This document shows positions 2,542-33,720 of a stretch of DNA of 64,000 nucleotides, in pieces. Every line of letters starts with the position of its first letter. Positions within the stretch are counted from its first letter, which is position 1. The DNA is taken from assembly GCA_964016885.1 (NCBI GenBank), contig OZ024745.1, positions 80,662,001 to 80,726,000 of the forward strand, written 5' to 3'. The stretch is from Eledone cirrhosa (taxonomy: Eukaryota). A program made the translations under genes and the position numbers. A model generated the notes under the pieces. It was not told the origin of the DNA, searched no databases, and saw only the letters and a program-made list of their open reading frames with translations.

Positions 2542-2753
2542 TATCTATCTGTGTGTTTGAGAGAGAGAGAGAGAGTCCCGGGTTCAATCGGGGGTAACCA
2601 CACATACAAGATTTTGATTTAATATAGAAATGGCTTCTGCAGGACTAGAACTGTTTCAATCGAAGGAAATCATATATAAAGTTTCCAGAGTTGCAGAGAA
2701 AAATTGATGCATTACAGTAAAAAAAAAAAAGATATGACATTGTTATTACTTAC

Positions 2754-2803
2754 AGTATTTCCTTCATTGCAGTTTGTTGCAGAAATGGATGAAAATGCTG
2801 CAT
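2754..2803 (-). CDS. Probable small downstream exon of the delphilin-like gene
   Basis: ttgttgtttattctag|AT GCA ... ACT|gtaagt; open in phase 1 after the 13023 exon, giving (D)AAFSSISATNCNEGNT. Consensus donor, no homology support. Confidence 0.6.
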
Positions 2804-2805
2804 CT

Positions 2806-5800
2806 AGAATAAACAACAACAAATATTACACTTAGAATAAAGAACAACTATGAATGCTGTGTCTAAAATAGACAACAACTATGAATGTTATGTCTAAAAT
2901 AGACAACAACTATGAATGCTGTGTCTAAAATAGACAACAACTATGAATGCTGTGTCTAAAATAGACAACAACTATGAATGCTGTGTCTAAAATAGACAAC
3001 AACTATGAATGATGTGTCTAAAATAGACAACAACTATGAATGTTGTGTCTAGAATAGACAACAACTATGAATGTGTGTCTAAAATAGAGAACAACTATGA
3101 ATGCTGTCTAAAATAGACAACAACTATGAATGCTATGTCTAAAATAGACAACAACTATGAATGCTATGTCTAAAATAGACAACAACTATGAATGCTGTGT
3201 CTAAAATAGAGAACAACTATGAATGATGTGTCTAAAATAGACAACAACTATGAATGTTATGTCTAAAATAGACAACAACTATGAATGCTATGTCTAAAAT
3301 AGACAACAACTATGAATGCTGTGTCTAAAATAGACAACAACTATGAATGCTGTGTCTAAAATAGACAACAACTATGAATGCTGTGTCTAGAATAGAAAAC
3401 AACTATGAATGCTGTGTCTAAAATAGACAACAACTATGAATGCTGTGTCTAAAATAGACAACAACTATGAATGCGGTGTCTAAAATAGACAACAACTATG
3501 AATGCTGTGTCTAAAATAGACAACAACTATGAATGCTGTGTCTAAAATAGACAATAACTATGAATTCTGTGTCTAAAATAGAGAACAACTATGAATGCTG
3601 TGTCTAAAATAGAGAAAACTATGAATGCTGTGTCTAAAATAGAAAACAACTATGAATGCTGTGTCTAAAATAGACAACAACTATGAATGTTATGTCTAAA
3701 ATAGACAACAACTATGAATGCTGTGTCTAAAATAGAGAACAACTATGAATGCTGTGTCTTAAATAGACAACAACTATGAATGCTGTGTCTAAAATAGAGA
3801 ACAACTATGAATGTTGTGTCTCAGAATAGAGAACAACTATGAATTCTGTGTCTAAAATAGAGAACAACTATGAATGCTACGTCTAAAATAGACAACAACT
3901 ATGAATGCTGTGTCTAAAATAGACAACAACTATGAATGCTATGTCTAAAATAGACAACAACTATGAATGCTATGTCTAAAATAGACAATAACTATGAATG
4001 CTGTGTCTAAAATAGACAACAACTATGAATGCTATGTCTAAAATAGACAACAACTATGAATGCTGTGTCTAAAATAGAGAACAACTATGAATGTTGTGTC
4101 TCAGAATAGAGAACAACTATGAATACTGTGTCTAAAATAGACAGCAACTATGAATGCTGTGTCTAAAATAGAGAAAACTATGAATGCTGTGTCTAAAATA
4201 GAGAACAACTATGAATGCTGTGTCTAAAATAGACAACAACTATGAATGTTATGTCTAAAATAGACAACAACTATGAATGCTATGTCTAAAATAGACAACA
4301 ACTATGAATGCTGTGTCTAAAATAGACAACAACTATGAATGCTGTGTCTAAAATAGACAACAACTATGAATGCTGTGTCTAAAATAGACAACAACTATGA
4401 ATGCTGTGTCTAAAATAGACAACAACTATGAATGCTGTGTCTAAAATAGACAACAACTATGAATGATGTGTCTAAAATAGACAACAACTATGAATGCTGT
4501 GTCTAGAATAGACAACAACTATGAATGTTGTGTCTAAAATAGAGAACAACTATGAATGCTGTGTCTAAAATAGACAACAACTATGAATGCGGTGTCTAAA
4601 ATAGACAACAACTATGAATGCTGTGTCTAAAATAGACAACAACTATGAATGCTGTGTCTAAAATAGACAATAACTATGAATTCTGTGTCTAAAATAGAGA
4701 ACAACTATGAATGCTGTGTCTAAAATAGAGAAAACTATGAATGCTGTGTCTAAAATAGAAAACAACTATGAATGCTGTGTCTAAAATAGACAACAACTAT
4801 GAATGTTATGTCTAAAATAGACAACAACTATGAATGCTGTGTCTAAAATAGAGAACAACTATGAATGCTGTGTCTTAAATAGACAACAACTATGAATGCT
4901 GTGTCTAAAATAGAGAACAACTATGAATGTTGTGTCTCAGAATAGAGAACAACTATGAATTCTGTGTCTAAAATAGAGAACAACTATGAATGCTACGTCT
5001 AAAATAGACAACAACTATGAATGCTGTGTCTAAAATAGACAACAACTATGAATGCTATGTCTAAAATAGACAACAACTATGAATGCTATGTCTAAAATAG
5101 ACAATAACTATGAATGCTGTGTCTAAAATAGACAACAACTATGAATGCTATGTCTAAAATAGACAACAACTATGAATGCTGTGTCTAAAATAGAGAACAA
5201 CTATGAATGTTGTGTCTCAGAATAGAGAACAACTATGAATACTGTGTCTAAAATAGACAGCAACTATGAATGCTGTGTCTAAAATAGAGAAAACTATGAA
5301 TGCTGTGTCTAAAATAGAGAACAACTATGAATGCTGTGTCTAAAATAGACAACAACTATGAATGTTATGTCTAAAATAGACAACAACTATGAATGCTATG
5401 TCTAAAATAGACAACAACTATGAATGCTGTGTCTAAAATAGACAACAACTATGAATGCTGTGTCTAAAATAGACAACAACTATGAATGCTGTGTCTAAAA
5501 TAGACAACAACTATGAATGCTGTGTCTAAAATAGACAACAACTATGAATGCTGTGTCTAAAATAGACAACAACTATGAATGATGTGTCTAAAATAGACAA
5601 CAACTATGAATGCTGTGTCTAGAATAGACAACAACTATGAATGTTGTGTCTAAAATAGAGAACAACTATGAATGCTGTGTCTAAAATAGACAACAACTAT
5701 GAATGCTATGTCTAAAATAGACAACAACTATGAATGCTATGTCTAAAATAGACAACAACTATGAATGCTGTGTCTAAAATAGACAACAACTATGAATGCT

Positions 5801-8800
5801 GTGTCTAAAATAGACAACAACTATGAATGCTGTGTCTAGAATAGAAAACAACTATGAATGCTGTGTCTAAAATAGACAACAACTATGAATGCTGTGTCTA
5901 AAATAGACAACAACTATGAATGCGGTGTCTAAAATAGACAACAACTATGAATGCTGTGTCTAAAATAGACAACAACTATGAATGCTGTGTCTAAAATAGA
6001 CAATAACTATGAATTCTGTGTCTAAAATAGAGAACAACTATGAATGCTGTGTCTAAAATAGAGAAAACTATGAATGCTGTGTCTAAAATAGAAAACAACT
6101 ATGAATGCTGTGTCTAAAATAGACAACAACTATGAATGTTATGTCTAAAATAGACAACAACTATGAATGCTGTGTCTAAAATAGAGAACAACTATGAATG
6201 CTGTGTCTTAAATAGACAACAACTATGAATGCTGTGTCTAAAATAGAGAACAACTATGAATGTTGTGTCTCAGAATAGAGAACAACTATGAATTCTGTGT
6301 CTAAAATAGAGAACAACTATGAATGCTACGTCTAAAATAGACAACAACTATGAATGCTGTGTCTAAAATAGACAACAACTATGAATGCTATGTCTAAAAT
6401 AGACAACAACTATGAATGCTATGTCTAAAATAGACAATAACTATGAATGCTGTGTCTAAAATAGACAACAACTATGAATGCTATGTCTAAAATAGACAAC
6501 AACTATGAATGCTGTGTCTAAAATAGAGAACAACTATGAATGTTGTGTCTCAGAATAGAGAACAACTATGAATACTGTGTCTAAAATAGACAGCAACTAT
6601 GAATGCTGTGTCTAAAATAGAGAAAACTATGAATGCTGTGTCTAAAATAGAGAACAACTATGAATGCTGTGTCTAAAATAGACAACAACTATGAATGTTA
6701 TGTCTAAAATAGACAACAACTATGAATGCTATGTCTAAAATAGACAACAACTATGAATGCTGTGTCTAAAATAGACAACAACTATGAATGCTGTGTCTAA
6801 AATAGACAACAACTATGAATGCTGTGTCTAAAATAGACAACAACTATGAATGCTGTGTCTAAAATAGACAACAACTATGAATGCTGTGTCTAAAATAGAC
6901 AACAACTATGAATGATGTGTCTAAAATAGACAACAACTATGAATGCTGTGTCTAGAATAGACAACAACTATGAATGTTGTGTCTAAAATAGAGAACAACT
7001 ATGAATGCTGTGTCTAAAATAGACAACAACTATGAATGCGGTGTCTAAAATAGACAACAACTATGAATGCTGTGTCTAAAATAGACAACAACTATGAATG
7101 CTGTGTCTAAAATAGACAATAACTATGAATTCTGTGTCTAAAATAGAGAACAACTATGAATGCTGTGTCTAAAATAGAGAAAACTATGAATGCTGTGTCT
7201 AAAATAGAAAACAACTATGAATGCTGTGTCTAAAATAGACAACAACTATGAATGTTATGTCTAAAATAGACAACAACTATGAATGCTGTGTCTAAAATAG
7301 AGAACAACTATGAATGCTGTGTCTTAAATAGACAACAACTATGAATGCTGTGTCTAAAATAGAGAACAACTATGAATGTTGTGTCTCAGAATAGAGAACA
7401 ACTATGAATTCTGTGTCTAAAATAGAGAACAACTATGAATGCTACGTCTAAAATAGACAACAACTATGAATGCTGTGTCTAAAATAGACAACAACTATGA
7501 ATGCTATGTCTAAAATAGACAACAACTATGAATGCTATGTCTAAAATAGACAATAACTATGAATGCTGTGTCTAAAATAGACAACAACTATGAATGCTAT
7601 GTCTAAAATAGACAACAACTATGAATGCTGTGTCTAAAATAGAGAACAACTATGAATGTTGTGTCTCAGAATAGAGAACAACTATGAATACTGTGTCTAA
7701 AATAGACAGCAACTATGAATGCTGTGTCTAAAATAGAGAAAACTATGAATGCTGTGTCTAAAATAGAGAACAACTATGAATGCTGTGTCTAAAATAGACA
7801 ACAACTATGAATGTTATGTCTAAAATAGACAACAACTATGAATGCTATGTCTAAAATAGACAACAACTATGAATGCTGTGTCTAAAATAGACAACAACTA
7901 TGAATGCTGTGTCTAAAATAGACAACAACTATGAATGCTGTGTCTAAAATAGACAACAACTATGAATGCTGTGTCTAAAATAGACAACAACTATGAATGC
8001 TGTGTCTAAAATAGACAACAACTATGAATGATGTGTCTAAAATAGACAACAACTATGAATGCTGTGTCTAGAATAGACAACAACTATGAATGTTGTGTCT
8101 AAAATAGAGAACAACTATGAATGCTGTGTCTAAAATAGACAACAACTATGAATGCTATGTCTAAAATAGACAACAACTATGAATGCTATGTCTAAAATAG
8201 ACAACAACTATGAATGCTGTGTCTAAAATAGACAACAACTATGAATGCTGTGTCTAAAATAGACAACAACTATGAATGCTATGTCTAAAATAGACAACAA
8301 CTATGAATGCTGTGTCTAGAATAGACAACAACTATGAATGTTGTGTCTAAAATAGAGAACAACTATGAATGCTGTCTAAAATAGACAACAACTATGAATG
8401 CTATGTCTAAAATAGACAACAACTATGAATGCTATGTCTAAAATAGACAACAACTATGAATGCTGTGTCTAAAATAGACAACAACTATGAATGTTATGTC
8501 TAAAATAGACAACAACTATGAATGCTATGTCTAAAATAGACAACAACTATGAATGCTGTGTCTAAAATAGACAACAACTATGAATGCTGTGTCTAAAATA
8601 GACAACAACTATGAATGCTGTGTCTAAAATAGACAACAACTATGAATGCTGTGTCTAAAATAGACAACAACTATGAATGATGTGTCTAAAATAGACAACA
8701 ACTATGAATGCTGTGTCTAGAATAGACAACAACTATGAATGTTGTGTCTAAAATAGAGAACAACTATGAATGCTGTGTCTAAAATAGACAACAACTATGA

Positions 8801-11112
8801 ATGCTATGTCTAAAATAGACAACAACTATGAATGCTATGTCTAAAATAGACAACAACTATGAATGCTGTGTCTAAAATAGAGAACAACTATGAATGCTGT
8901 GTCTAAAATAGACAACAACTATGAATGTTATGTCTAAAATAGACAACAACTATGAATGCTATGTCTAAAATAGACAACAACTATGAATGCTGTGTCTAAG
9001 ATAGACAACAACTATGAATGCTGTGTCTAAAATAGACAACAACTATGAATGCTATGTCTAAAATAGACAACAACTATGAATGCTGTGTCTAAAATAGACA
9101 ACAACTATGAATGTTGTGTCTAGAATAGACAACAACTATGAATGCTATGTCTAAAATAGACAACAACTATGAATGCTATGTCTAAAATAGACAACAACTA
9201 TGAATACTATGTCTAAAATAGACAACAACTATGAATGCTGTGTCTAAAATAGACAACAACTATGAATGCTATGTCTAAAATAGACAACAACTATGAATAC
9301 TATGTCTAAAATAGACAACAACTATGAATGCTGTGTCTAAAATAGACAACAACTATGAATGCTGTGTCTAAAATAGAGAACAACTATGAATGTTGTGTCT
9401 CAGAATAGAGAACAACTATGAATTCTGTGTCTAAAATAGAGAACAACTATGAATGCTATGTCTAAAATAGACAACAACTATGAATGCTGTGTCTAAAATA
9501 GACAACAACTATGAATGCTATGTCTAAAATAGACAACAACTATGAATGCTATGTCTAAAATAGACAATAACTATGAATGCTGTGTCTAAAATAGACAACA
9601 ACTATGAATGCTATGTCTAAAATAGACAACAACTATGAATGCTGTGTCTAAAATAGAGAACAACTATGAATGTTGTGTCTCAGAATAGAGAACAACTATG
9701 GATACTGTGTCTAAAATAGACAGCAACTATGAATGCTGTGTCTAAAATAGACAACAACTATGAATACTATGTCTAAAATAGACAACAACTATGAATGCTG
9801 TGTCTAAAATAGACAACAACTATGAATGCTATGTCTAAAATAGACAACAACTATGAATACTATGTCTAAAATAGACAACAACTATGAATGCTGTGTCTAG
9901 AATAGAGAACAACTATGAATGCTGTGTCTTAAATAGACAACAACTATGAATGCTGTGTCTAAAATAGACAACAACTATGAATGTTGTGTCTCAGAATAGA
10001 GAACAACTATGAATTCTGTGTCTAAAATAGAGAACAACTATGAATGCTATGTCTAAAATAGACAACAACTATGAATGCTGTGTCTAAAATAGACAACAAC
10101 TATGAATGCTATGTCTAAAATAGACAACAACTATGAATGCTATGTCTAAAATAGACAATAACTATGAATGCTGTGTCTAAAATAGACAACAACTATGAAT
10201 GCTATGTCTAAAATAGACAACAACTATGAATGCTGTGTCTAAAATAGAGAACAACTATGAATGTTGTGTCTCAGAATAGAGAACAACTATGAATACTGTG
10301 TCTAAAATAGACAGCAACTATGAATGCTGTGTCTAAAATAGACAATAACTATGAATGCTGTGTCTAAAATAGACAACAACTATTAATGCTATGTCTAAAA
10401 TAGACAACAACTATGAATGCTATGTCTAAAATAGACAACAACTATGAATGCTGTGTCTAGAATAGAGAACAACTATGAATGCTGTGTCTAAAATAAACAA
10501 CAACTATGAATGCTGTGTCTAAAATAGACAACAACTATGAATGCTGTGTCTAAAATAGACAACAACTATGAATGCTGTGTCTAAAATAGACAACAACTAT
10601 GAATGTTGTGTCTAGAATAGAGAACAACTATGAATGCTGTGTCTAAAATAGACAACAACTATGAATGCTATGTCTAAAATAGACAACAACTATGAATGCT
10701 GTGTCTAAAATAAACAACAACTATGAATGCTGTGTCTAGAATAGAGAACAACTATGAATGCTGTGTCTAGAATAGAAAACAACTATGAATGCTGTGTCTA
10801 AAATAGAGAACAACTATGAATGCTGTGTCTAGAATAGAGAACAACTATGAATGCTGTGTCTAAAATAGACAACAACTATGAATGCTATGTCTAAAATAGA
10901 CAACAACTATGAATGCTGTGTCTAAAATAAACAACAACTATGAATGCTGTGTCTAGAATAGAGAACAACTATGAATGCTGTGTCTAGAATAGAAAACAAC
11001 TATGAATGCTGTGTCTAAAATAGACAACAACTATGAATGCTGTGTCTAAAATAGAGAACAACTATGAATGCTGTGTCTAAAATAGAGAACAACAACAAAT
11101 GTTGCATCTAGC
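2806..11112. repeat. 31-bp minisatellite, about 265 units, with higher-order structure
   Basis: Unit GACAACAACTATGAATGCTGTGTCTAAAATA repeated continuously with few variants; degenerate units at both edges. Confidence 0.98.
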
Positions 11113-11274
11113 GTAAACTACACAATGAGCATTTTAAGGCAATGTCCCCTATTAAAGTATTGCGGATCTCAGAATAGATTTTATACTTAATGTGGGGTCT
11201 TTTTTGAGGCAAAGTTTTATGGCCAGATACTCTGTCTTGTGTCAACTATTTTTAGTTGCCCTCTTACATGTAGG

Positions 11275-11430
11275 GATACAGTGTACCTAGTCACCTCTTA
11301 CAACATGTAGAGATGAGATACAGTGTACCTAGTCCCCTCTTACAACATGTAGAGATACAGTGTACCTAGTCCCCTCTTACAACATGTAGAGATACAGTGT
11401 TCGTATTCTATACCAGATATCTTACAACAT
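11275..11430. repeat. Short tandem repeat, unit about 37 bp
   Basis: gatacagtgtacctagtcccctcttacaacatgtaga, 3-4 copies. Confidence 0.8.
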
Positions 11431-12022
11431 GCATGGATATTGTATACCTATTCTAAACATATACACAGAATGCAGTCAGTTTTACTTAAAAGTACCAGAG
11501 AGAAAATAAGTTTTTGTGGGAGATACCCTACTGATTTTAGCTTGGTTTCTATGGCTGGATGCTTTTTGTTATGACATCTACATGACCACCTTACAGTGTG
11601 GGCTGGGGGATTTGGTGGGAAGGGTGTGTGGCGATTAAGGAGGTGGGTATATGGGCGTGTGTGAGGGGCAGAGTGTTAGGATGCAGATATATGGGTGTGT
11701 GAGAGGGTGGGTGAATACTATATGTATACTTTAGCCTGTGCTTGTGGGAATGTGGGTCTTCTGCATTACGCATAATGCCAGAGATCCCAGTCCTGTGTCA
11801 TTGCCTTTGATATATATATAACCATGATGCATTTCTATAATGTACAATTGTTGCATACGGATCAGCGAAAGTGTACAGTCGGGACTTTGAAGAAAAAATA
11901 GGTATATGTCTGTGCCTATTATTTCCTCTTATTTTATAATTTGATATATAGCTCTGACTATCGAGTCAATTTAATCATTTTGATTATTTTGGCCCTTTCA
12001 ATCATCGAGCGACACTGGTTAA

Positions 12023-12241
12023 CCCTTTAGCATTTAACCCACTGTATCCGGCCAGAATTCTCTTACCTCTTTCTGTTCAAACCGGCCGTAACTGGTCGCT
12101 CATACTCATGTTAAGGTATTTTTCTTAAAATAAATGACATAAAAATCTCGTAGATTCGATATTATGTGAGATAATTATGTTAGGTAAAGCCTTCACCACA
12201 AAATACAATAGTATATATAGAGTAATGTAAATGCTAAAGGG
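12023..12241. mobile_element. piggyBac-type MITE
   Basis: TTAA on both sides; 14-bp TIR CCCTTTAGCATTTA/TAAATGCTAAAGGG; homologous to 17246-17466. Confidence 0.85.
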
Positions 12242-12321
12242 TTAAGGTTGACACCACACACACTCACATACATGTGAAAAAAAAAATGTATATGTGTGTA
12301 TCTCATTATTATATATATATA

Positions 12322-12652
12322 TCATCATTTTCATTTCATTTAACATCCGCTTTTTACCTGCTTGCAAGGGTGGGACGGGAACTGATTCTGGCTTGATTTC
12401 TACAACTGGATGCCCTTCCTAACACCAACCTCATTTACAGTGAGTGCTGGGTGGTTTTTGCCGTGGCACCTACACGACCACTTTGCAGTGGAATGATATG
12501 GACCCCTATCATCTCATTTCTACAGCTGAGTAAACTGAAGCAATGTGAAATAAAGTGTCTTGCTCAAGGAAACAACACATAACCCGATCTGAGAATTGAA
12601 CTCACAACCTTTCGATTGCAAGGCCAATGCTCTAACCACTAAGCCATGTGCC
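12322..12652 (-). mobile_element. tRNA-derived SINE family A (RTE-type tail)
   Basis: Reverse complement of 45414-45767. Confidence 0.85.
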
Positions 12653-13022
12653 TATACATATACATGTGCCTATACATATACATAAAGTTAAGAAAATTAT
12701 CAAAGAGAGGACAAGACAATGAACGGAAACAAGGCAAAACAAAAACATATTTTTTTATTATTTCATATACTATGAAATAATAATTTCATTTGACTGATCT
12801 TAATGTCAACTTTTGTCAGAAAGTATAATTAGCAAATCAACCAGCATATTACTGGTACTTATTTTATCAACTTTGCAATGGTTGTCACATTATATTATAT
12901 GAAAATACAATAAGTTGATGTCAACAGATACAAGTGGAAAATATTGGAAATTTTTAATAGAGACCAATTTGAGAGTTGAAGAAATCCTCGTTATCAAAGA
13001 AAGAACTAACAATTTTACTTAC

Positions 13023-13165
13023 CAAGTTGTTTATTCCTTGATATTATTTTCTGTTTTACCAATGCTTGATGTTTAAGAGTGAGATCTGATAAAAGACTTA
13101 ACCATACTGTTTGTTTTGCAGGGGTATTTAGAATACGTTCTATATTGATAATGTTTCCAAATGTT
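13023..13165 (-). CDS. GRID2IP: Delphilin-like exon: third HN-like repeat, second part
   Basis: ttttcag|A ACA ... G|gtaagt; TFGNIINIERILNTPAKQTVWLSLLSDLTLKHQALVKQKI..., LNTPAKQxxW motif. Confidence 0.75.
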
Positions 13166-14564
13166 CTGAAAAATAAAAATAATTGAATCTAAATGGAAAT
13201 CTAGTTTAAAACATTACTTAACTAAGACCTCAGATCAGATTTATTTCATTAAAATGTTATTCATTTTTATAATCCTACTGAGAGTGATTCATTAAGCACC
13301 ATGAGTTTCTATCAAATAGCAAGCATGTCTATGGCAGATTGTTTGCAAACTTCATATTTGAAATCTTTAAATAAGATTTTAAAGATGTTGAAATTATTCT
13401 TATGAATTTTTTTTTCAGTGAAATCTTTCCAAATATTGTTTAAATATATTCGACACAATGAAACTCCCATGAATATAGTTAGAATGCCCATAAAATGAGA
13501 GTGTTTTTCTTAAACAGAAAATGCTCTTAAATCATAATAAGAATATGATAAAGTGATTAGCTTGTTTACATTGTGTTTGACCCTATGTTAGATGTAAAAA
13601 TACTAAACTATTCTTCACTTTCTCCAATAAAACAATATTTTCTTTTGTTTATCTATGTTGTCATTTAACCCATAATATATCTTTTCTTCTTTAACATCCA
13701 CTTTTATTATTAAGGGGAAGACCAGGGTGATTGACTGGCTGAATCAATAGAGCATTGGACAAAATGCTTTGTAGCATTTGTTTCTCTCTTTACATTCTAA
13801 GTTCAAATCATGTTGAGGTCAACTTTGCCTTTCATCTTTCCAGGTTCAATAAAATAAAGTACCATTCAAGTGCTGGGGATGATATAATCGATATTGCCTC
13901 TCTCCCATCCCTCACCAAATTGATGGCCTTGTGCCTAAATTAGAAATCGTTATTAAGGAGAAAACCCATTACATAAGAAAAATTGTTCACTTAACACTGA
14001 CTGATATACATTTACTATTCATCTCTATCTATTGCAAAGTCAGCAGATTCTCTAAGTCTAACATTGTGGCCAATTGTATATTTGATCTTCTCAAAGCGAG
14101 AGTCATTAGAATGTTGGACAGAATGCTTTGGGGGTATTCATGTCAATTCTCTTCTCTCTGAGAGCAAATCCCGCTGAAGTCAACTTTGACTTTCGTCCTT
14201 TCGAGGTCGATAAAAAAGTACCAGTCCAGTACTGGGTTTGTTTCTTCCTCTATATCTTTTTCTCATTTCTTTTCTATCCCTATCATTCTTTCTTTGGAAG
14301 AAATTGGCAGTGTTCATACAAGGAGAAGAGATGGGCTCCACCAGGTTTTTATGTCACGCCAGTGTCCTTCCAACTCTATCAGAAGTGACAGATTAAAGGA
14401 TAAAGTATGTTTAATAGGAATTGATCTTTTTCAATGAAAAAAACTAATCAGTTAATCATAACTTTCTATTGTTACAGACTTGTTGGATGTGATATGACAG
14501 AAAGTTAAAATGTTTTCTTGTTAATGAAGCCAATTAGCATAAATAACTGTAAAAGTGTAAATAC

Positions 14565-14870
14565 CCACCTCAGTCATGAATGACCACAGGATTGGCACCT
14601 AGAAAGTTCTCCTTCTGATGCACAAGTCCAGGCAAGATTGTTTGTGGAAAACCACCAGTAACCCATAAACACCAGTCACCCTTCTCCACATTAATGTCAT
14701 TGTCTAAGGGAAAAGCAATGGCCGATACAGCTTGGCACCAGTGATGACACAACTCATTTCTACAGCTGAATGAACTGGAGCAATGTGAAATAAAGTGTCT
14801 TGCTCCAGAATGCAACACAGCCTGGTCTGGAAATCGAACTCACAACCTTGTGATTGTAAACCCCAAACTT
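14565..14870 (-). mobile_element. SINE related to family A (same head and core, different tail)
   Basis: Shares ctcatttctacagctg...caatgtgaaataaagtgtcttgctc and the B-box region with family A. Confidence 0.7.
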
Positions 14871-15190
14871 TAATTAACTTGGACTCGTTTAAGCAGTGAT
14901 ATATAAAAATAATACTTTTCAAGGATTATAGTTAAATAGTTCTGTTGCATAGCAGCGATGCTGGGGTCCTAGCATTAATGAAAACATTAGTAATAAAGAC
15001 ATTAACTCTGTTTTAAGATCTACATTGGGATTTTCCAGAAAAAAACAACAATAAAAGCATTAAAAACAGGTCAATCACAAGAGTAGGTCTTTCTCTACTG
15101 ACTCAGTTGAGAGATTCCTTTATCTATAAAATGGATAACTTCTGATAATTGGAATCTTCCTAATTTTAATTAAGAAAATGTTTTGATTAC

Positions 15191-15275
15191 TTATTTGTTG
15201 CATAAATATCTAGATTATTTTTGACTTTATTAGCTTCACATGTGTTCAGGTGATGTTCCATAAGACTTCGGTCAC
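15191..15275 (-). CDS. GRID2IP: Delphilin-like exon: third HN-like repeat, first part
   Basis: ttttag|GT GAC ... AA|gtaatc; DRSLMEHHLNTCEANKVKNNLDIYATN; phases 1/2 fit both neighbours. Confidence 0.7.
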
Positions 15276-15299
15276 CTAAAATAAAATAAATATTAAATG

Positions 15300-15590
15300 A
15301 GATAAAACAAACTAAATTAACTCTAATTAAATTTTAACCCTAAATTAACCAAACAAAAATAACTTAGCCCTAAATTAATCAAACAAAATTAAATTAACTC
15401 TAAATTAATCAAACAAAATTAACCAAACAAAATTAAATTAACTCTAAATTAATCAAACAAAATTAAGCTAACCCTAAATTAATCAAACAAAAATAACTTA
15501 ACCCTAAATCAAACAAACACAATTAAGTTATCCCTAAATTAACCAGACAAAATTAAATTAATCCTAAATTAAATAAACCCAAACCAATTA
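15300..15590. repeat. Degenerate tandem repeat, unit about 30 bp
   Basis: aaccctaaattaatcaaacaaaattaaatt-like units, about 9 copies. Confidence 0.8.
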
Positions 15591-16021
15591 AAAGCACTCA
15601 TAGAGTCATGATATAAAAGACCCAGTCTACACTGTAATATTGTTGGCATTAGGAAGGGTATCTGTCCATAGAAACCAAGCCAAAAAGAAAATCATGACAT
15701 GATCACCTGATCTAATTAGTCTCATAGGAAGGGCATTCAGCTGTAGAAAACCTGCCAAATAAAGGGTTAGGAGGACCTTCAACTGTGTCAAAGACATAAC
15801 AACCTCCCTAGTACTGGTGTCATGATTAAATGCACTCAGTAGACTGTGGGTCTGTATGTCACCTGAGAATACTGACTTGGTCTATCAAGACCCGACCAAA
15901 CCTTGCTAGCAGGGAAAACATATGTTGAATCATGAGGATGATTTCTGCTACTTTTGTAGAGGAAATGAATGAGATTGTTAGAGAAAAAGATGGAAAAGGG
16001 ATATAAAGCTGAAGAACGTAC

Positions 16022-16170
16022 TGCTGTTTAAGTTAACATCAAGATTTTCTTTTATTCGAATGTATTTCCTTTCTTTTGTTGACATTTTCAGCAATAAGAA
16101 CAACCAGAGAGACTTCTTGGATGGTGTGTCCAGAAGTAACCGCAGGTATGTTAATAATTTAAAGATGTTA
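16022..16170 (-). CDS. GRID2IP: Delphilin-like exon: HN domain 2, second part
   Basis: tttag|T AAC ... A|gtacgt; NIFKLLTYLRLLLDTPSKKSLWLFLL..., matching the HN motif LDTPxKxxLW. Confidence 0.8.
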
Positions 16171-17245
16171 CTAAAGAACAAATTAAAAGAAAAAATTAAA
16201 CAAAAAAGAGAATGAAAGAAACAAAAATATCAAAATAAATAAAAGAATTTATTCTTTTGTTGTTCCCCCCATCATTATTTAATGTCTGCTTTCCATGCTG
16301 ACCTGGGTTTGGTCATGGGAGATTGTCACATATATCCCTCCAACTCCTGCTAGCATGTATATAGACTTAAAACGATGATGATAATGATACGGATGATGGT
16401 GATGTCGATGATGATGGTGATGATGACAATGTGAATGATAATGATGATGACAACAACAATGATAATGATGATGACAACGATAATAATTATTTCTACTTTT
16501 GGCACAAGGCCAGCAATACCCAGTGCATTTCTGGTACTTTATTTTATCGACCCCCCCCCCCCCCCCGTAAGGATGAAATCAAAGTTAACCTCGGCGGGAT
16601 TTGAACTCAGATCATAAAGGGCCGTAACTCTATGCTGCAAAGCATGCTGCCCGACCCTCTACTGATACTGCCAATCCACCGTCCAACGATAATAATGACG
16701 ATAATGATGATGATGATGATGACAATGATAATTGTTTCTACTTTTTGGCACAAGGCCAGCAATTACCCAGTGTATTACTGGTACTTTATTTTATCGACCT
16801 CATAAGGATGAAAGGCAAAGCTAACCTCGGCGGGACTTGAACTCAGAATGGCAAGGGCCATAACTCAATGCGCCAAAGCATGGCACCCGACCCTCTACCG
16901 ATACTGCCAATCCACTGCCCTTGATGACAATGATAATGATAATGATAGACAATTAAGTCATATATTGTTTTATTCTTTTACTTGTTTCAGGCATTAGACT
17001 ACAGCCATGCTGGGGTACCGACTTGATTTAATCAAACATATCGACTCCAGTACTTATTTTTTCAAGTTTGGTAATTATTTTATTGATCTCTAAGTTTTTG
17101 ATTCAGTGTATGTTTGATCTGAGATGTTTAGGTTTTATGTTGTTTGTAACTAATGTGGATGACTCATAAGATTATTGTCTTTGATATGTGCAGTGATTGT
17201 ATCAGTGTACTTCTGAAAGAGACTAGATTTTTACGTGTCTATTAA

Positions 17246-17466
17246 CCCTTTAGTATTTAAACTGGCCATATTTGGCCAGAATTCTCTCACCTCTTTCTGT
17301 TCTAACCGGCTGTAACCAACTGCTTTTACTTATTTTAAGGTATTGTTCTTAAAATAAATAATATCAAAAGCTCGTAGATTTGAGATTATGTGAGATAATT
17401 ATGGGAGATCAAATGTTTACAGTGAAAATACAATAGTAAATATGGAGTAATGTAAATACTAAAGGG
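17246..17466. mobile_element. piggyBac-type MITE, second copy
   Basis: TTAA TSD; TIR CCCTTTAGTATTTA/TAAATACTAAAGGG. Confidence 0.85.
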
Positions 17467-17774
17467 TTAAAGAAAATTCTCTGGGTGTTTTTTCTATGTA
17501 TTAAATGTATATCTGATATGAAGGATTTAGGTTGTGTTGTGTGTTGTTTATAAGTAGAAATAGTAAAATGTACAATATAGTGTGTTATTCATTAAAATGT
17601 ATAATTACATTGAAGTGTAAACTGAGAATAAAGAGATGAGGAGAGCAGGAGAGATGGAGGCAGTGATAGTGGGTGTTTGGTTCCTTTGTGTTCGGACCTG
17701 ATGTACATGTATATGTTTTGCCAACACACTCATACTGAGGCATAACTAAACATTATGGAATTAAATTTAGAAAA

Positions 17775-20529
17775 ATACACTAAATCCCTCCCCCATGAAG
17801 AATGCACCTCCCAACATAGCCTCATAGTTAGCGACCTCATAGTCAGGACGAGACGTATTCAACAACAGAGGAGGACTATCCTTAGGAGAAAAATATGGAA
17901 GTTAAAGGACCCCACAGCCAGTAATAAATTTAAAAGCATATTACTTGATGCTTTTAACAGTAAGGAAGAGCAATTAGAGTCGTACAATATAGAGGAACAG
18001 TGGGTATTCCTGAAAGCTAACCTGCTGAAGGCGACAGATGAAATCTGTGGCTGGAGCAGACTTATAGGCAGGAGGAGAGTAACTTGTTGGTGGAACAGTA
18101 AGGTGGAGGAGTCTATCAAGGCCAAAAAGCAGGCTTGGAAAGTATGGTGGGATGGGGAAAGTAGAGAAGACTATCAAGTGGCCAGGAGGGAAGCTAGGAG
18201 ACAAGTGTACTTCGCAAGAAGGGAAGCAGAGGAAAGAAAGTTCAAGCATGTTCTACAACGCGACGACCAAAAACGTGAGGTGTTCAGGAATGCTAGACAA
18301 TGTGTCAAGGAGAACCGTGATATTGTCGGGGAGAAGTGTGTTGTCCGTAATGATGATGGTGTACTTGCCACCACTGACGCTGATAAGAAGGTAGCTTGGA
18401 AATGTCACTACGAAAGGCTACTAAATGAGGAGAATAAATGGGAGAAAGACAGTCTCCCCCACATCGATCCAATAGAGGGATCAGCAGTGCAAGTTGAAGG
18501 TAGTATAATAAGTAAGGCAATCAAAGATATGAAGACGGGCAAGGCGGCTGGGCCTTCGGAAATAGTTGCTGAAATGCTGAAAGCATCTGGAACGGTGGGA
18601 CACACTATGGTCACCCGGATAGTAAACCAAGTTATACAGAATGGGGTCGTACCAAAGGACTGGCGTAGTAGCATCATCATTAACTGCTACAAGGGTAAAG
18701 GAGATGCCATAGATAGGTGAAACTATAGAGGCATTAAATTAATTGACCAGGTCATGAAGGTCACAGAAAAAGTAATAGTGCATCTAATCAGAGAGCGAAT
18801 TGATCTAGATGAAATGCAGTTCGGGTTTGTGTCAGGTAAAAGTACCACAGACGCTCTTTTCATTGTACAACAACTACAGGAGAAGTACCTAGCTAAAAGT
18901 AAACCCCTTTACTTAGCTTTTGTAGACCTGGAGAAAGCCTTTGACAGAGTCCCCTGCTCCATTATCTGGTGGGCTCTTAGAAAACTAGGTGTAGATGAAT
19001 GGCTTGTGAGAGCTATACAAGCCATGTATAAAGAAACAGTCAGCAAGGTTAGAATTAACAACAAATAGAGTGAAGAGTTTAGCATAAAAGTTGGTGTTCA
19101 TCAGGGCTCAGTCCTTAGCCCCCTCCTATTTATTATCACCCTCCAAGCTATAACGGAGGAGTTCAAGACTGGCTGCCCATGGGAACTTCTATACGCAGAT
19201 GATCTAACGCTCATAGCCGAATCAATGGCTGAACTAGAGAAGAAATTCCAAACATGGAAGCATGGCCTAGAATCAAAAGGCCTTAAAGTTAACTTGTCTG
19301 AGACTAAAGTCCTAATATGTAGGAAGGAGAATAGGGCACTGGTCCCATCTGGGAAATGGCCATGTTCAGTGTGTAGGAAAGGAGTAGACAGAAGCTCCAT
19401 TTTATGTCCCAAATGCAAAGTATGGGTTCATAAAAGATGTAGTGGGATCACAGGTAAGGTAACTAAGAATATAGATTTTATATGTGGCCGGTGCTCTGGT
19501 GCAATAAGTAGCAGCATATGCCCACAGAATACTAGCTCATTCCATTGCCCAGATGGTTCTATAGAAATAGTGGACACCTTCCGTTACCTGGGGGACAAAA
19601 TCAGCAGTGGTGGAGGGTGCTCCGAAAGTACTGTAGCTAGAGTCCGAACGGGATGGAAAAAGTTCAGAGAGCTTATACCACTATTGTCCGCTAAAGGTTC
19701 TCTCTAAAAATAAAAGGCAGACTGTATGATGCCTGCATACGAACAGCGATGTTACATGGCAGTGAGACATGGGCCTTGTGTGCAGAGGATCTATGCAGAC
19801 TGGAGAGGAACGAAGCTTGCATGCTCCGTTGGATGTGTAATAGTAATATACGTGAACGGCAAAGCATAGACGAACTAAGTGAGAAATTAGGAATAAGAGG
19901 GATCAGATGCTGTTTACTCGAGAGAAGACTACGTTGGTATGGTCACGTGATGCGCATGAAAGATGACAGCTGTATAAAAAAGTGCAGGGCGATCAAAATA
20001 GACGGTAGCTACAGAGTAGGCAGACCCAGAAAAACCTGGGATGACTTGATAAAATCCGACCTCACACACTTACACCTCTCCAAGACAATGTCACTGGACC
20101 GAGATCTTTGGCGCTACGTAGTAATACAGAAGACCCGCCTTGCCTAAGTACAAAGTGAAACCTACAGTCAGTAGGAACCTCTTAACCAAAATACACCCGC
20201 GCCCCACTACCCCCACCGCCATCTACACCACCCCTTTCGATTGTAAAGCTATGTTGGTACCACAACATCCAGTCCTAAAGAAATGAGATTGTGTAGGTGT
20301 CATGACAAAAAAACACACAGTCCACGCTGTAATGTGGCCATGTAGGTAACACGGTAAAAACCTCCCAGTCCATACTGTAAACATGGTTGGTGTTAGGAAG
20401 GGCATTCAGCCGTAGAAAACCCGCCAGACAGTCCTGAGCAAGACAACCAATCTTGCCTCAAGTGGGACAACTCCCGTCCAGACTCATGCTAGCGTGGAAG
20501 ATGGACGTTAAACGATGATGATGATGATG
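17775..20529 (+). mobile_element. 5'-truncated, disrupted RTE-clade LINE
   Basis: RT motifs (AFVDLEKAFDRVP, GVHQGSVLSPLLF, LLYADDL, FRYLG), RTE-type C-terminus (RRLRWYGHVMR...GRPRKTW), stops and frameshifts, (GAT)n tail. Confidence 0.92.
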
Positions 20530-20844
20530 TGAAATGTATTTCATTCAGTTTTGTAAAGAAACATTTTCCGTCAAATGAAACCTATGGTACCACTCACAGT
20601 GAATTTCTTCTATATTTACCAATTTATTTAACTAAGATGAATGATTCTATAACTCAGACTACTATAGTGAGAGTAACTGCTAGGTAAAAATTCAAAAAAT
20701 TCAATAGTGTTTAACAGAGAAGAATAAAAACAAATATACAAAAAAATCTTAAGTAAATAAATACAGAAGAAAAGAATAACTGAACAAAAAACAAAAAAAA
20801 AACAAAAAAAAAAAAAACAATTTTATATGAGAAATGTGTATTAC

Positions 20845-20915
20845 CTGGAGTTAGTATACTGGAAAAAGTATAACAACAATAATCTTCGTTCAAGTGCTGT
20901 TAATAAATATTCCAT
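20845..20915 (-). CDS. GRID2IP: Delphilin-like exon: HN domain 2, first part
   Basis: ttcag|ATG ... AG|gtaata; MEYLLTALERRLLLLYFFQYTNS, similar to delphilin LEHLLTPPER (recalled from memory). Confidence 0.75.
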
Positions 20916-21078
20916 CTGAAAATGTAGATTGCAGTTTGATAAAAATTAACTATTGTTCACTCTGAACGATCGACAAGATCCCAGACCTCATTAGCTTGCT
21001 TAGAGGGCTGGACCTCGTCAAATCAGACCAAGGAAACAATGTTTCCATTGGTCTTTCCCTTGCTGATACTATCTACCA

Positions 21079-21179
21079 GCTATGGCAGTACATATTCTAA
21101 AATTGGAATGATACAGAGAAGATTAGCATGGCCCATGTGCAAGGATGACACACAAATTCGTGAAGCGTTCCATATTTTT
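21079..21179 (+). pseudogene. RNU6: U6 snRNA retropseudogene
   Basis: Matches U6 (ACAGAGAAGATTAGCATGGCCC...AAATTCGTGAAGCGTTCCATATTTTT) with several CpG-type substitutions and about 6 missing or diverged 5' nt. Confidence 0.92.
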
Positions 21180-21899
21180 CTGTTGTAGTGCACCTGAGCA
21201 CTGTACACAATAATTTCATCATTATTATTACCAGTCACAACTCCTGGCAGAAAGAGCAGCATGAAAATAAAGTGTCTTGTTCAAGGACACAACACATCAT
21301 CTGGGCCAAGAATTGAACTAACGACCTCACGATTGTGAATCCAACTCTCTAACCACTAAACCAACTATTGCTCAGAATCTTAACTATCAATTATTTTGTT
21401 TTTTTGGACTTAAAACATTCTTGTTATTACTTGTTATTACTCATTATTAGGGATTGGCAGTATCGGTAGAGGGTCAGACACCATGCTTTCCAGCATAGTT
21501 ACGTCCCTTTACAATCTGAGTTCAAATCCCGCCGAGGTTGACTTTGCCTTTCATCCTTACGGGGTCGATAAAATAAAGTACCAGTAATGCACTGGGATAA
21601 TTGATGGCCTTGTGCCAAAAGTAGAAACAATTATTACAACAGCCATTACTCCCTAATTACATACATTTATTTGATTTGGTACAGCATCAACACCAACCAG
21701 CTCTGTCCAGTTTACTGTGGCCTAGACTAATCTAGTTCCAGTTCATTTCCAGTTTGGCTCAGTTCCTTCAAAATGATAAAGCTCTTTCTTTCACATACCA
21801 AACCTATTATTACTGTCCACTTAACAAACCAACTGACCAACTGACCAGCTATAGCACTTCCAGGTATGCTTCCAGGTATGCTGATAGGAAGAGCAAGCA

Positions 21900-22145
21900 A
21901 CTGTAGAAACTATGCTCTCAGTACATGCTGTAATGTGGTTGGTGATAGTAAGGGCATCCAGCTGTGGAAGCCATGCTCCTAGTACATGCTGTAATGTGGT
22001 TGGTGATAGTAAGGGCATCCAACCATAGAAACCATGCTCTCAGCACATGCTGTAAAGTGTTTGGCATTAGGAAGGGCATCTAGCCATAGAAACCAAGCTC
22101 CCCGTACATTCTGTGAAGTGGTTGGTGATAGGGAGGGCATCCAGA
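21900..22145 (+). repeat. About 60-bp tandem repeat derived from the SINE-A/RTE tail
   Basis: Four copies of ...ctgtaa(t/a)gtggttgg...aagggcatcca...agaaacca. Confidence 0.75.
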
Positions 22146-22178
22146 ATATAAATAAACAACAAATGTATTCCCAAATAC

Positions 22179-22303
22179 CTTTTGTTTGAATGTGAAGCCT
22201 TCATTGTCTTGATAAGGGTTGAACTCCTCAATGATCCAATCAAAGGATTCTTCATTGGTGTTTGTAATGAAGCTGGTTGTTTCAAATAATGAATTCACCT
22301 GAA
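22179..22303 (-). CDS. GRID2IP: Delphilin-like exon: linker leading into HN domain 2
   Basis: ctccag|TT CAG ... AAG|gtattt; QVNSLFETTS...FDWIIEEFNPYQDNEGFTFKQK; phases 1/0. Confidence 0.7.
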
Positions 22304-22322
22304 CTGGAGAGTTGGATAGCAA

Positions 22323-22373
<51 letters not shown>

Positions 22374-22376
<3 letters not shown>

Positions 22377-22698
22377 AAGTTTAAACATTATATAAAAGAA
22401 GAGTATATATCAATTGAGAAACTACTGGTATTTTGTACATATATACTGATGAATGAAATAATGGTCTTAAGATGCTTATTACCAAAATTGATAATTGGTA
22501 ATTAATACTAATTACTAAAATCAATGATTTGTGTCTTTTCTATGCGTTTCATGAAACAGATCCATATAAGGAATTATAAGCTATGTTACCATTTTGAAGT
22601 AAGTATATTTACTTATAAATTACTCTGTTTATGTGTACAAAATACAAGTAGTATCTCAATTGACATATACCCTTTTTTATATATTGTTTAAACTTGTA
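22374..22698. repeat. Fold-back element with about 70-bp arms and a degenerate hammerhead-like core
   Basis: tacaagtttaaaca.../...tgtttaaacttgta arms; CTGATGA at 22446, atgaaat/gtttcat stem, GAAA at 22553; cleavage triplet not intact. Confidence 0.55.
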
Positions 22699-23053
22699 TA
22701 ATTGAAGCTCTGAACAAATGTTCTGTAAGGTTGGCACTTAGAAGAAAAGATTAGGTATATTTTGTCTATTTGCTCTTAACATTTATTATTATTATATAGC
22801 TCTGAAAGCGGAGTTTTGGCAGTGTTGTTTGGGCATTGGATAACATGCTTTGCTGCACAGTTATGGCCCTTTACGTTCTGAGTTCAAATCCTGCCAAGGT
22901 TAGCTTTATCCTTCATCCTTACGGAGTCGATAAAATAAAGCACCAGTAATGCACTGGGGTCGATTTAATCGACCCCCCCCCCCAAAAAAAAAAATTGCTG
23001 GCCTTGTGCTTATAGTAGAGATCATTATTATATCGATCTGATTCATTGATAAT

Positions 23054-23183
23054 TTAGATAGTAACATGTGCTTATGCTGTACTTGACTAAATAGAAATAG
23101 TCTGTTAGTTGGGATTTAAAAAACCCAACTAACAGACTAATTCTATTTAGTCAAATACAGCATAAGCACATGTTACTACCTAA
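23054..23183. repeat. Near-perfect 130-bp hairpin
   Basis: About 60-bp arms around an atttaaaaaa loop. Confidence 0.85.
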
Positions 23184-23316
23184 TTTTCAAATTACGTAGA
23201 AAGCATCTGTTAGGGATTAACAAAAATGTGCCCGTCGTGGTGCGCCAAAGAACGGATTGTATTTGTTGTCATGTCATGCCTCCACTACCAGGACTCATTG
23301 AACAACAACAACAATA

Positions 23317-23360
<44 letters not shown>

Positions 23361-24276
23361 CTTAAAAAGGCTACAGAAGGAATGCTAATGGCTGTGCAAG
23401 AGCAGGCCCTCAAAATGAAGTGGCTGAAACACCATATTTACAAGGAGGAGGCTAGCCCACTGTGCAGGATCTGTGGAGAGAGAGAGAAGACTGGCTCACA
23501 TTGTATCCGAGTGTAAATACCTAGGAGACCTTAAAAAGGCTACAGAAGGAATGCTAATGTCTGCGCAAGAGCAGGCCCTCAAAACGAAGTGGCTGAAACA
23601 CCATATTTACAAGGAGGAAGCTAGCCCACTCTGCAGGATCTGTGGAGAGAGAGAGGAGACTGTGGCTCACATTGTATCCGAGTGTAAACACCTAGCCCAG
23701 ACTCACTATAAAGGCTGGAGACATGATGTGATGGGCAGGGTGATCCACTGGCGCCTATGCAAAGTAAACAATTTACCACATTCTGAGAAGTGGTATGGGC
23801 ATAAGCCAGAGTCGGTGATAGAAACGATCAGGTGAAGGTGCTGTGGGATTTTAGGATACAGACGGAACACAATAGAAACTGGAACACAATAGACCTGACC
23901 TGGTGGTTTTGGGCAAGGAAAAAAGATCATGACTGATTGTGGATGTGGCCTGCCCATTCGACACGATTAACCGATACTAGGACTTAAAGTGGGAGGTAAA
24001 AAGGATTTGGAACTGCCATGAAGTCAAAGTGGTCCCGATTGTCATAGGCGCACTAGGTACTATCTCAAGGAGTATCCAGGGATGGTTAAAGAAGATTAGT
24101 CCAGCCCTGCTTTTTGGAATACTTCAAAAGGCATGCTTGCTGGGAACAGCAAGAACCCTCCGATACATCCTGAATATCTGAGGCTGCAGGTAGCAGCTTG
24201 ATATTCCTTTCAACAAACTTTCCAGTTAAATAACATCAATGACTGAGACTCAAAGAACAATAATAATAATAATAAT
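23361..24276 (+). mobile_element. 3' fragment of an R4/Dong-type LINE with internal tandem duplication
   Basis: High identity to 32394-33177; the first about 165 bp are duplicated; (AAT)n on both sides. Confidence 0.9.
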
Positions 24277-24462
24277 AATTGTTTCTACTTTAGGCACAAG
24301 GCCAGAAAATACCCAGTGCATTACTGGTACTTTATTTTATCGACCCCGTAAGGATGAAAGGCAAAGTCAACCTCGGCGGGATTTGAACTCAGATCGTAAA
24401 GGGACGTAACTATGCTGGAAAGCATGGCGTCCGACCCTCTACCGATACTGCCAATCCACCGC
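24277..24462 (-). mobile_element. SINE family B
   Basis: Full reverse-complement copy flanked by (AAT)n. Confidence 0.85.
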
Positions 24463-24465
24463 TGT

Positions 24466-24507
<42 letters not shown>

Positions 24508-24749
24508 TTTTCTTTATTAACCACAAGGGTTTACATAAAGTAGACATTAAGGACAGTACAGGACAATACAGGACAGTACAAATGGGCATTTCTGCGTGTA
24601 AAAAAACAGAGGTTGAAATAAAATAACAAAGAAAAATTCCCCAATAGGGGGGAGACTTCCGAGGGACATTTGTGGAGAAAGCCCATTAAAAGACCACAGT
24701 GGCCCTGACCACCAGGGCAAGTGCCCTCTCCCAGTTTTCCACCTTTAAT

Positions 24750-27700: not shown

Positions 27701-28169
27701 CCACTAATCCCACACAATCCCAGCGTGCATCTAAGATCCCGTTCCAGTCGCCCACTAACACTAAAGAGCGGGACGTTCCAAGAAAGGTCTCCAGACGCCG
27801 GAAGAAATCAGGCCGCCCTGCTCCTGTCGGGGCATAGACGGCCACTAACCTGAAAGCTTGCCCGTCTCCGCTGGTCACGTCCAGCACCACCAACTTACCT
27901 TCTGGGTCCAGGAAGATGGCCCGTATGGCAAGATCCAAACCTCTCCGAAAAAGCACAGCAACTCCTCCCCCCGATCCCGGACGGCTGGGAGATGCGTACA
28001 CATCGTAGCCGCCGAAGATCGGTGCGAAAGCCTGTGCTTCGGAGATTCTGGTCTCGCTGATGGCCACTACATCTATGTTTAGTGACCTGAGGTCGTTGAG
28101 CAGGTGGCCCTGCTTCCATGACGACCCCAAGCCACGCGCATTTATGCTGCCTATTCTGAGTGAGGTCAT
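24750..28169 (-). CDS. Tx1-like ORF2: APE endonuclease, reverse transcriptase, CCHC finger (1139 aa, uninterrupted)
   Basis: SINARGL, SETR, VYAP, GDWN, SYLDR, TDHK; RT DQSKAFDRV, RQGCPLS, YADD; CPRC...ETVLHALVQC. Confidence 0.95.
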   Translation of the reverse strand: MTSLRIGSINARGLGSSWKQGHLLNDLRSLNIDVVAISETRISEAQAFAPIFGGYDVYASPSRPGSGGGVAVLFRRGLDLAIRAIFLDPEGKLVVLDVTSGDGQAFRLVAVYAPTGAGRPDFFRRLETFLGTSRSLVLVGDWNGILDARWDCVGLVDREGGCKSLTNLLRRFELSDRYRMDFPNVPMWTWTNRIGSSRSYLDRVFCREIDRSSIGCPQFKIVSYTDHKFVISVLDLDRLHRRGPGYWKLNASLPARKAYRDRISELVKRALTGAIVNNKWWFALKRAIRIESIRFSKTLVIEKNRAEGELVRKLDEALSKGIATDVLAAKLALDQFFNAKHEGCVVRARVRALRHEGTKAVQWARVAEARRGNKATIRSLVDHDGRMLLDPGQMCEAFQRHFAQLFGGSGEPDRGMDFSVYLDGLPRLSATEAKCCEKPITTAEVRDAMTSCTRGKSPGLDGLLYELYVQMPNLFGGLLADVYCNWQQNGRIPSSVSRGAVALLRKDPNKGDNIDNFRPITLLNTEFKILAKVLAKRLALVVGGLVGEAQTCAIPDRSIHDNLHLMRYIVERVAREPGKGGSLINLDQSKAFDRVDHRYLAAVLRAAGFGPVFRGWIAAMHSDICSVVRVNGHLSEPFNIMRSVRQGCPLSSLLYVLTLEPLLHKLETLRGVPRELECGRSVSAYADDVTVVVSNAKHIEAIGTTLREYEAVTGAMINQEKSVGLQLGTWRGRSMPSNSVVGRWTDGPVKLLAVWFGPDLQTDKNWDEVTSRVASLTQKWAERKLSLKGRAEVANAYIASVIYYRLTVVPCPKPRLTALERLLFRFLWKGRAPMVRRSICCQHLLRGGLGMPWLMMRRHALRVRHLHLFLDGDQVWSPFARHVFPQLVSLTELQSWVKRRPRGSAWRLECFQALTALDQSGNVIGGNSTLAFYRGLVEGKSDDVLGETLGVDENQLANLFGRTFGPGPMDNFQKSLAWQCYRGALPVRDKLYRHGGAVSRACPRCAQGDETVLHALVQCPSIADLWVYVEHLLSRVGRIQLSAESIVRIAPPPSFSREGQAVFICLVAMAKEIVWWTRLKGLKTSTYLFGDALINFFKFHLKRKIRVEREVLSSQHFVERWVREASMARMNGPSLSMCL

Positions 28170-28203
28170 GTTGAAAAGGAGTGGAAAAGATGGGAAAGAC
28201 CAC

Positions 28204-30201: not shown

Positions 30202-30441
30202 TTTTTTTTCAAAGAAATTTTTTGATAATAATAAAAGTTAAAATTTTGGGCACAAGGCCCCAATCTTTTTGGGTGTCCTTTTCGGAAAACAATGTATGTG
30301 TGCTTATAAACAGTTAACAATAAAATTTTCCATAAATGGCAATTTTTAACAAACGGAAATAACAAACGGAAATAACAAACCTTTGCGGAGCTCACGATGA
30401 TACGATTTACTACGTAGGTCGCCAATAATAATAATAATAAT

Positions 30442-33177: not shown

Positions 33178-33353
33178 TGTTTCTACTTTAGGCACAATGC
33201 CAGCAACTACCCAGTGCCTCACTGGTACTTTATTTTATCGACCCCGTAAGGATGAAAGGCAAAGTTAACCTCGGCGGGATTTGAACTCAGATCGTAAAGG
33301 GACGTAACTATGCTGGAAAGCATGGCGTCCGACCCTCTACCAATACTACCAAT
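33174..33353 (-). mobile_element. SINE family B
   Basis: Reverse-complement copy abutting the (AAT)n tail of the R4/Dong element. Confidence 0.85.
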
Positions 33354-33364
33354 AATAATAATAA

Positions 33365-33720
33365 CACCTGATTGGAAAGCAAGTGGCATTACCTACCTTC
33401 TACCAAAGAACAACGAAACCAAAGATCAAAAAAACTATCGGCCCATAACCTGCTTGTCCACCACTTATAAACTATTAACCTCTATTCTCATGGAAAAAGC
33501 ATACGTGTTTTTGGAGGAGAACAATCTTTTCCCCATTGAACAAAAAAGGGTGCCGACGAGGTTCATATGGTTGCAAAGATCAACTTTTGATTAATCATAT
33601 GATCCTTGAGAACTGTCATAATAAACACAGAAATCTCAGTTCTGCATGGGTCGATTATAAAAAAGCCTTTGACAGCAAACCACACTCAAGGATTCTGAAA
33701 TCACTGGACATCTTCAATCC
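33365..33720 (+). mobile_element. RT fragment of another R4-type LINE
   Basis: KNYRPITCLSTTYKLLT, GCRRGSYGCKDQLLIN, WVDYKKAFDS; frameshifted. Confidence 0.8.

Follow-up and report, generated by a model that had tools for sequence, protein, structure and literature searches.

An intronic 31-bp minisatellite in a delphilin-like gene of Eledone cirrhosa, made up of tandem copies of a splice acceptor junction

Main finding

The window analyzed here is a stretch of 64,000 nucleotides from the genome of Eledone cirrhosa (contig OZ024745.1, positions 80,662,001 to 80,726,000), and one of the introns that it contains is largely filled by a minisatellite. This array is made up of tandem copies of the acceptor junction of the gene's own 50-nt exon, present at one locus, and is likely a tolerated "mirage" that is removed whole with the intron while the authentic acceptor at 2803 is used.

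The host gene and its 50-nt exon

The setting of the array is given by the following features.

2754..46364, minus strand: part of the host gene lying within the window, with 11 coding exons corresponding to residues 122-564 of P0001
13023..13165, minus strand: upstream coding exon of 143 nt with a 1-nt overhang, its GTAAGT donor at 13022-13017
2754..2803, minus strand: coding exon of 50 nt, phase 1 in and phase 0 out, bounded by AG and GT, in frame and with homology
2748..2753, minus strand: donor (GTAAGT) of the 50-nt exon; no other donor close by is available for an acceptor to pair with

Further exon matches of the gene, at least 12 by tblastn, were found to the left of the window, and the reading frame is unbroken across all matched exons. 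On the basis of homology the gene is delphilin-like, combining FH2 with three PDZ domains; its homologs include P0001 of Octopus bimaculoides, the single homolog recovered with the upstream exon, in which three PDZ domains and the start of FH2 were recognized, and P0002 of O. vulgaris, which is named delphilin-like. The initial annotation depended on 2754-2803 being a genuine exon, and this appears to be the case, as it has AG and GT bounds, is in frame with exon 13165-13023 as well as with the exon that follows, 6.2 kb to the left of the window, and encodes a peptide, (D)AAFSSISATNCNEGNT, which aligns with GAAFSSISAVNYNEENT of P0002 and was found in all four homologous proteins (P0001-P0004, from two Octopus species). 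The residues at the exon start, DAAF, match GAAF of two other species, the split codon at 2803 encoding Asp here and Gly in both of the others.

A second AG lies 6 nt inside the exon (window 2797, minus strand, ATGCAG/CATT), where it scores 7.3 bits and is in frame, giving a product two codons shorter; it is a possible tandem alternative acceptor of the 50-nt exon. Elsewhere in the gene, at the exon at about -15418 to -16010 (L009), about 48 residues of P0001 are duplicated internally, which is the case neither here nor in P0002, and a late FH2 exon match about 37.9 kb left of the window (contig C5) is without AG at its expected start (ttctacg), for which either an acceptor elsewhere or a one-base assembly error would account. 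The host introns also hold two long open frames that look LINE-like by eye (24750-28208, minus strand, 1152 aa; 30401-33073, plus strand, 890 aa), the former preceded by an open frame of 337 aa at 28689-29702.

Structure of the array

2836..11093, minus strand: 31-bp minisatellite, each unit comprising 21 nt of intron end and 10 nt of exon start
11077..11128, minus strand: far-edge copies in which older exon-like sequence is retained, GCTAG/ATGCAACATT and then TGTTGTTGTT
2831..2861, minus strand: last copy before the true site, degenerate, its acceptor AG changed to AA, so that a weak AAG (0.2 bits) is left at the next base

The figure of about 265 tandem 31-nt units given in the initial annotation agrees with the TRF result, which places 266.4 copies with a period of 31 bp and 94% matches at 2836-11093, so that the array occupies 81% of the intron (13022-2804; 10,219 nt). 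Spacing of the core motif (n = 266) is 31 nt in 242 cases, 32 nt in 12, 30 nt in nine and 29 nt in two, with a single spacing of 87 nt at the flank. That the array is the intron/exon junction repeated, as had been proposed, was borne out by comparison with the junction at 2803 (-21 to +10, minus strand), to which the bulk unit is identical in 24 of 31 bases, a match equalled at 0 of 510,940 other positions (best 23) when 264 kb were searched on both strands with the array excluded; for the gene's 21 remaining acceptors the agreement with the unit is only 10-17 bases. Eight of the first 10 coding bases of the 50-nt exon are contained in the unit, and TTTTAG or TTCTAG is found at 248 of the 267 acceptor-equivalent positions upstream of 2803.

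The far edge had been described as exon-like, and it is: the copy there (GCTAG/ATGCAACATT, the next base being 11107) matches the junction in 22 of 31 bases and the bulk unit in 17 of 31, and its exon part, ATGCAACATT, is like the exon start in 9 of 10 bases, whereas 148 interior copies have ACACAGCATT. Both edges are nearer to the junction sequence than is the interior, which is 94% alike and contains exact blocks of kb size, namely a 2,574-bp repeat (offset 2,449) and a 1,162-bp block present four times. The degenerate copy at 2831 starts with G, possibly the ancestral base of the exon's split first codon. Two TG to CA dinucleotide changes separate the interior unit from the junction, in which CpG intermediates could be involved, and in four array units CG is found a single base beyond that point (ACGTAG).

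Minisatellites in the genome and reality of the array

Long minisatellites were found in 11 of 40 sampled 10-kb stretches, which were evenly spaced on six contigs and not random, and cover 51,885 of 400,000 bases (13%), with arrays longer than 3.7 kb in six of the stretches; several of the 14 background arrays are AT-like low complexity. Closer to the locus and downstream of the array, about 69-100 kb left of the window (L018-L015), a minisatellite with a 34-bp unit extends over at least 30.8 kb and comprises at least 905 copies, with higher-order periods of 68 and 102 bp. Another intron of the same gene holds 12.4 copies of a 101-bp unit (99% alike), 18.0-19.2 kb left of the window (L010), which span no junction. 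At L046:3850-9333 there are two adjoining 310-bp arrays, each 100% alike internally and apparently in opposite orientation.

The abundance of large minisatellites in this genome, together with the 15.5 acceptor-like sites per kb of one of the 14 sampled arrays, would be in keeping with a dispersed satellite or transposon fragment having landed beside the exon, its likeness to an acceptor being due to chance. The initial annotation had itself named a dispersed 31-mer as a concern, and this was checked across the 3.0-Gb assembly: an exact 28-mer of the unit gave 148 matches and a degenerate 27-mer (up to two mismatches) gave 242, both counts being lower bounds, and all of the 148 and all of the 242 lie in the window. 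The 31-bp unit is confined to one locus in the assembly and does not have the distribution of a dispersed satellite family. With every match inside the window, eight of the first 10 exon bases in the unit and a 24/31 match that is found nowhere else in the sequence searched, a chance resemblance is extremely unlikely.

The exact 2,574-bp repeat and the four exact 1,162-bp blocks resemble a mis-resolved repeat, and the array, or much of its length, could on that account be taken for an assembly artefact. We consider this very unlikely. The far edge is crossed with 0 differences by a 281-nt contig (three runs, one sample); relative to this contig a variant-unit contig has a depth of 11.0x (8.8-16.1), compared with 12 copies in the assembly, and what is probably a consensus-unit contig has 89.8x (73-134), compared with 83-88 occurrences of the commonest 31-mers, values that fit, although contig depth is no copy number and the unit variants in these contigs are inferred. 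A run search with 11100-15400, which is mostly intron and therefore less apt to bring up RNA, listed three runs of one sample and no RNA run, a result that is neutral as to splicing. The sample behind the read contigs may be the assembly's own source, and the comparison therefore argues against a gross artefact only; it covers the far edge, the near edge (2440-2880) being swamped by dispersed repeats, with the exon and its acceptor uncovered.

Origin of the array

Conservation of the exon's first codons in other species makes it most likely that the repeat was derived from the junction and not the junction from the repeat; for the same reason, namely that DAAF matches GAAF of two other species, the unit contains old coding sequence. 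We infer a single-copy ancestor of the array, which would have been seeded when about 28-31 bp across the junction were duplicated locally in tandem. An interior variant, with an extra AG at -16 and the TG to CA changes, would then have spread by unequal exchange and through the duplication of blocks 1.1 and 2.4 kb in size, while both edges of the array kept older sequence. The exact internal block duplications, seen in one sample and one assembly, suggest that the array has changed recently.

Strength of the copies relative to the authentic acceptor

2804..2830, minus strand: authentic acceptor region, with AG at 2805-2804, a 25-nt AG-free zone, TAAT with A at -23 and a score of 10.4 bits
2862..2893, minus strand: nearest intact copy, which would give a 109-nt exon whose stop follows 19 codons; the unit ahead of it is a variant that has TAAC at -26

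Acceptors were scored with a matrix built from 21 other sites of this one gene, the exon starts having been called by eye from tblastn, and with the tblastn match near -37876, which has no clear AG, excluded the acceptor set comprises 22 sites. Leave-one-out scores of the other acceptors range from 1.3 to 18.0 bits (median 10.1), those of the 230 TTTTAG copies from 4.7 to 8.9 bits and those of the 18 TTCTAG copies from 5.0 to 7.6 bits; with this matrix of 21 acceptors none of the array copies attains the 10.4 bits of the true site, a score that 16 unused sites attain in 71.7 kb of ordinary gene-body sequence. The AG-free zone is 14 nt in the copies vs 25 nt at the true site, and at least 17 nt in 20 of the 21 other acceptors. 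The amplified unit variant carries an extra AG at -16, and depletion of intervening AGs upstream of authentic 3' sites is described in an earlier study (PMC1636351).

Counting against a silent array, the copies are acceptor-grade by the matrix. The array copies average 6.7 bits, more than four of the gene's 21 other real acceptors achieve; 12 array sites come up to 8.3 bits, the cut for the lowest quartile, and sites of at least 4.7 bits have a density of 29.9 per kb in the array vs 2.9 per kb in the background. As for branch points, the motif T[AG]A[CT] is absent from the consensus unit, and 14 TAAY motifs lie inside and beside the array; the branch-point-like TAAT at the true site is a motif match only and weak evidence, and a branch-type motif occurs within 45 nt in 14 of the 21 other acceptors in this AT-rich DNA.

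Donor-type motifs were looked for on the gene strand of the array, with 0 occurrences of GTRAG, GTAAG and AGGT. Hundreds of AGs at even spacing on the gene strand might bring to mind a ladder of recursive, stepwise splicing, with the copies as intermediate acceptors and the intron removed piecemeal. A recursive splice site needs an AG directly followed by a donor GT, and with 0 AGGT and 0 GTRAG in the array such a ladder fails on sequence, so that we give it next to no credence.

Under exon definition the acceptor of a long intron is recognized together with a donor shortly downstream, with a limit of about 300 nt. Only seven copies, scoring 5.0-6.3 bits, are able to form an exon of at most 300 nt with the donor at 2753. 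In an array without a donor, all but these approximately seven copies would be orphans, and the proximal ones would lose to the true site, which exceeds them in strength and in the length of its AG-free zone and possesses a branch-point-like motif. The proposal that the spliceosome must bypass hundreds of decoys was thus overstated, given the scores of the copies, their 14-nt AG-free zones, the lack of donors in the array and the small number of copies near the exon's own donor. Truncation, which had also been suggested, gains no support in the form of intronic polyadenylation, with 0 AATAAA and 0 ATTAAA on the gene strand of the array.

Consequences of mis-splicing

The AGs upstream of 2803 (to 11130) would all, if used, give a stop within 30 codons (756/756), in agreement with the earlier statement that they shift the frame or hit stops, and skipping of the 50-nt exon would give a stop after 14 codons; the frame stays open only with the acceptor at 2803 or 2797. 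NMD is predicted for products that are spliced into the array or skip the exon, because many junctions lie downstream. The shortness of the 50-nt exon may ease its skipping, and leakage into the array, or an effect of copy number on splicing, is possible. The copy at 2862-2893 is the predicted most likely leak site, and in any array-joined transcript the copy start expected after the donor would be ACACAGCATT or ACATAACATT.

A different reading, in which the array has the same origin, is that it constitutes a leaky, length-dependent poison element, the nearest copies (2862, 2893, 2924) being used measurably or the array promoting skipping of the 50-nt exon, with the consequence that the delphilin dose would be tuned through NMD by how long the array is or by the composition of its proximal units. 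This would be in line with the stops that follow all 756 upstream AGs and exon skipping, and with the presence of seven copies of 5.0-6.3 bits at most 300 nt from the donor. There are also precedents: in ABCA7, a frameshift results when one 25-bp unit is retained, and skipping of exon 19 is affected by the length of the VNTR (PMC5954066), and in CBS and 6-16 two proximal pseudo-sites are used (PMC1557585); this use of the nearest pseudo-sites, and the effect of repeat length on ABCA7 splicing, count against a silent array. On the other side, the true site outscores these copies by about 4 bits and has the longer AG-free zone, units added far from the donor would under exon definition bring no further competitors with length, and acceptor-side mirages of amphioxus are described as splicing normally (PMC3087553). 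On balance, a leaky element appears doubtful.

It is quite improbable that the array acts as a polymorphic splicing rheostat on the delphilin-like gene, in which the proximal copies would divert part of the transcript to NMD, selection would have allowed only a "defused" unit, one with the extra AG at -16 and lacking a branch motif, to multiply into hundreds of copies, and the AG of the copy closest to the exon would have been destroyed. If true, the locus would amount to a naturally occurring series of about 250 members in 3' splice-site competition.

Comparison with known systems

By its sequence features, the array is an acceptor-side mirage minisatellite, a repeat class that has already been described, though the initial annotation did not identify it as such, at an unusually large size. 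It is a tandem array in a gene, spans the gene's own boundary and keeps the AG in many copies (248 of 267 finish with TTTTAG or TTCTAG; in the final copy the AG is lost), and its boundaries lie outside concerted evolution. Mirages have been described in amphioxus in the globins BflGb6 and BflGb9, Adh3, troponin C and PGBD5, on both acceptor and donor sides (PMC3087553, PMC3902484); they too are tandem copies of the host gene's exon-intron boundary, with the AG kept in many copies and with concerted evolution from which the cluster boundaries are left out. BflGb6 is likewise acceptor-side, combining an intron's 3' end with an exon's 5' portion (PMC3087553), but has 3-6 units there compared with 266 copies over 8.3 kb in a mollusc here, and the Adh3 units of 10-72 bp bracket the 31 bp of the present array. 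Normal splicing and length instability are reported as shown for the amphioxus mirages.

In a further difference from the amphioxus mirages, only one of 27 junctions tested in the delphilin-like gene (22 acceptors, 5 donors) is echoed. A gene-wide tendency to echo junctions was rejected, with no echo of at least 22/30 at the other junctions (21 acceptors, 5 donors; 2 kb either side).

In humans, the VNTR of ABCA7 intron 18 has a 25-bp unit that includes the splice site of the flanking exon, and use of a copy leads to a frameshift; its longest alleles, 10,678 bp with about 427 units, provide a size precedent for the present array, from which it differs in lying on the donor and not the acceptor side and in that its length effect on splicing and disease has been measured (PMC5954066). 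In the 37-bp VNTR of F7 IVS7 and in CBS intron 13, 6-16, LMNB2 and PDGF, a boundary-spanning minisatellite reiterates the splice site into the intron; in these cases the authentic site or the one or two nearest sites alone are used (PMC1557585). They differ from the present array in being all on the donor side, with 5-25 copies, and in F7 the pseudo-sites do not differ from the authentic site, while the copies here have diverged from theirs (24/31) (PMC1557585). Internal tandem repeats at exon-intron boundaries in human duplicated genes can also alter splicing, but there they give rise to new introns or alternative coding forms, while here no copy gives an open frame (PMC2812944).

Implications

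The array adds a cephalopod example on the acceptor side, at the large end of the described repeat class, and a new mechanism would be at hand only if leakage or a length effect were shown. It also offers a test object, in which about 250 near-identical acceptors are placed in 31-nt steps from one donor and each use would produce a distinct junction, and a single RNA-seq data set could consequently show up to what distance exon definition operates and how much an intervening AG weighs.
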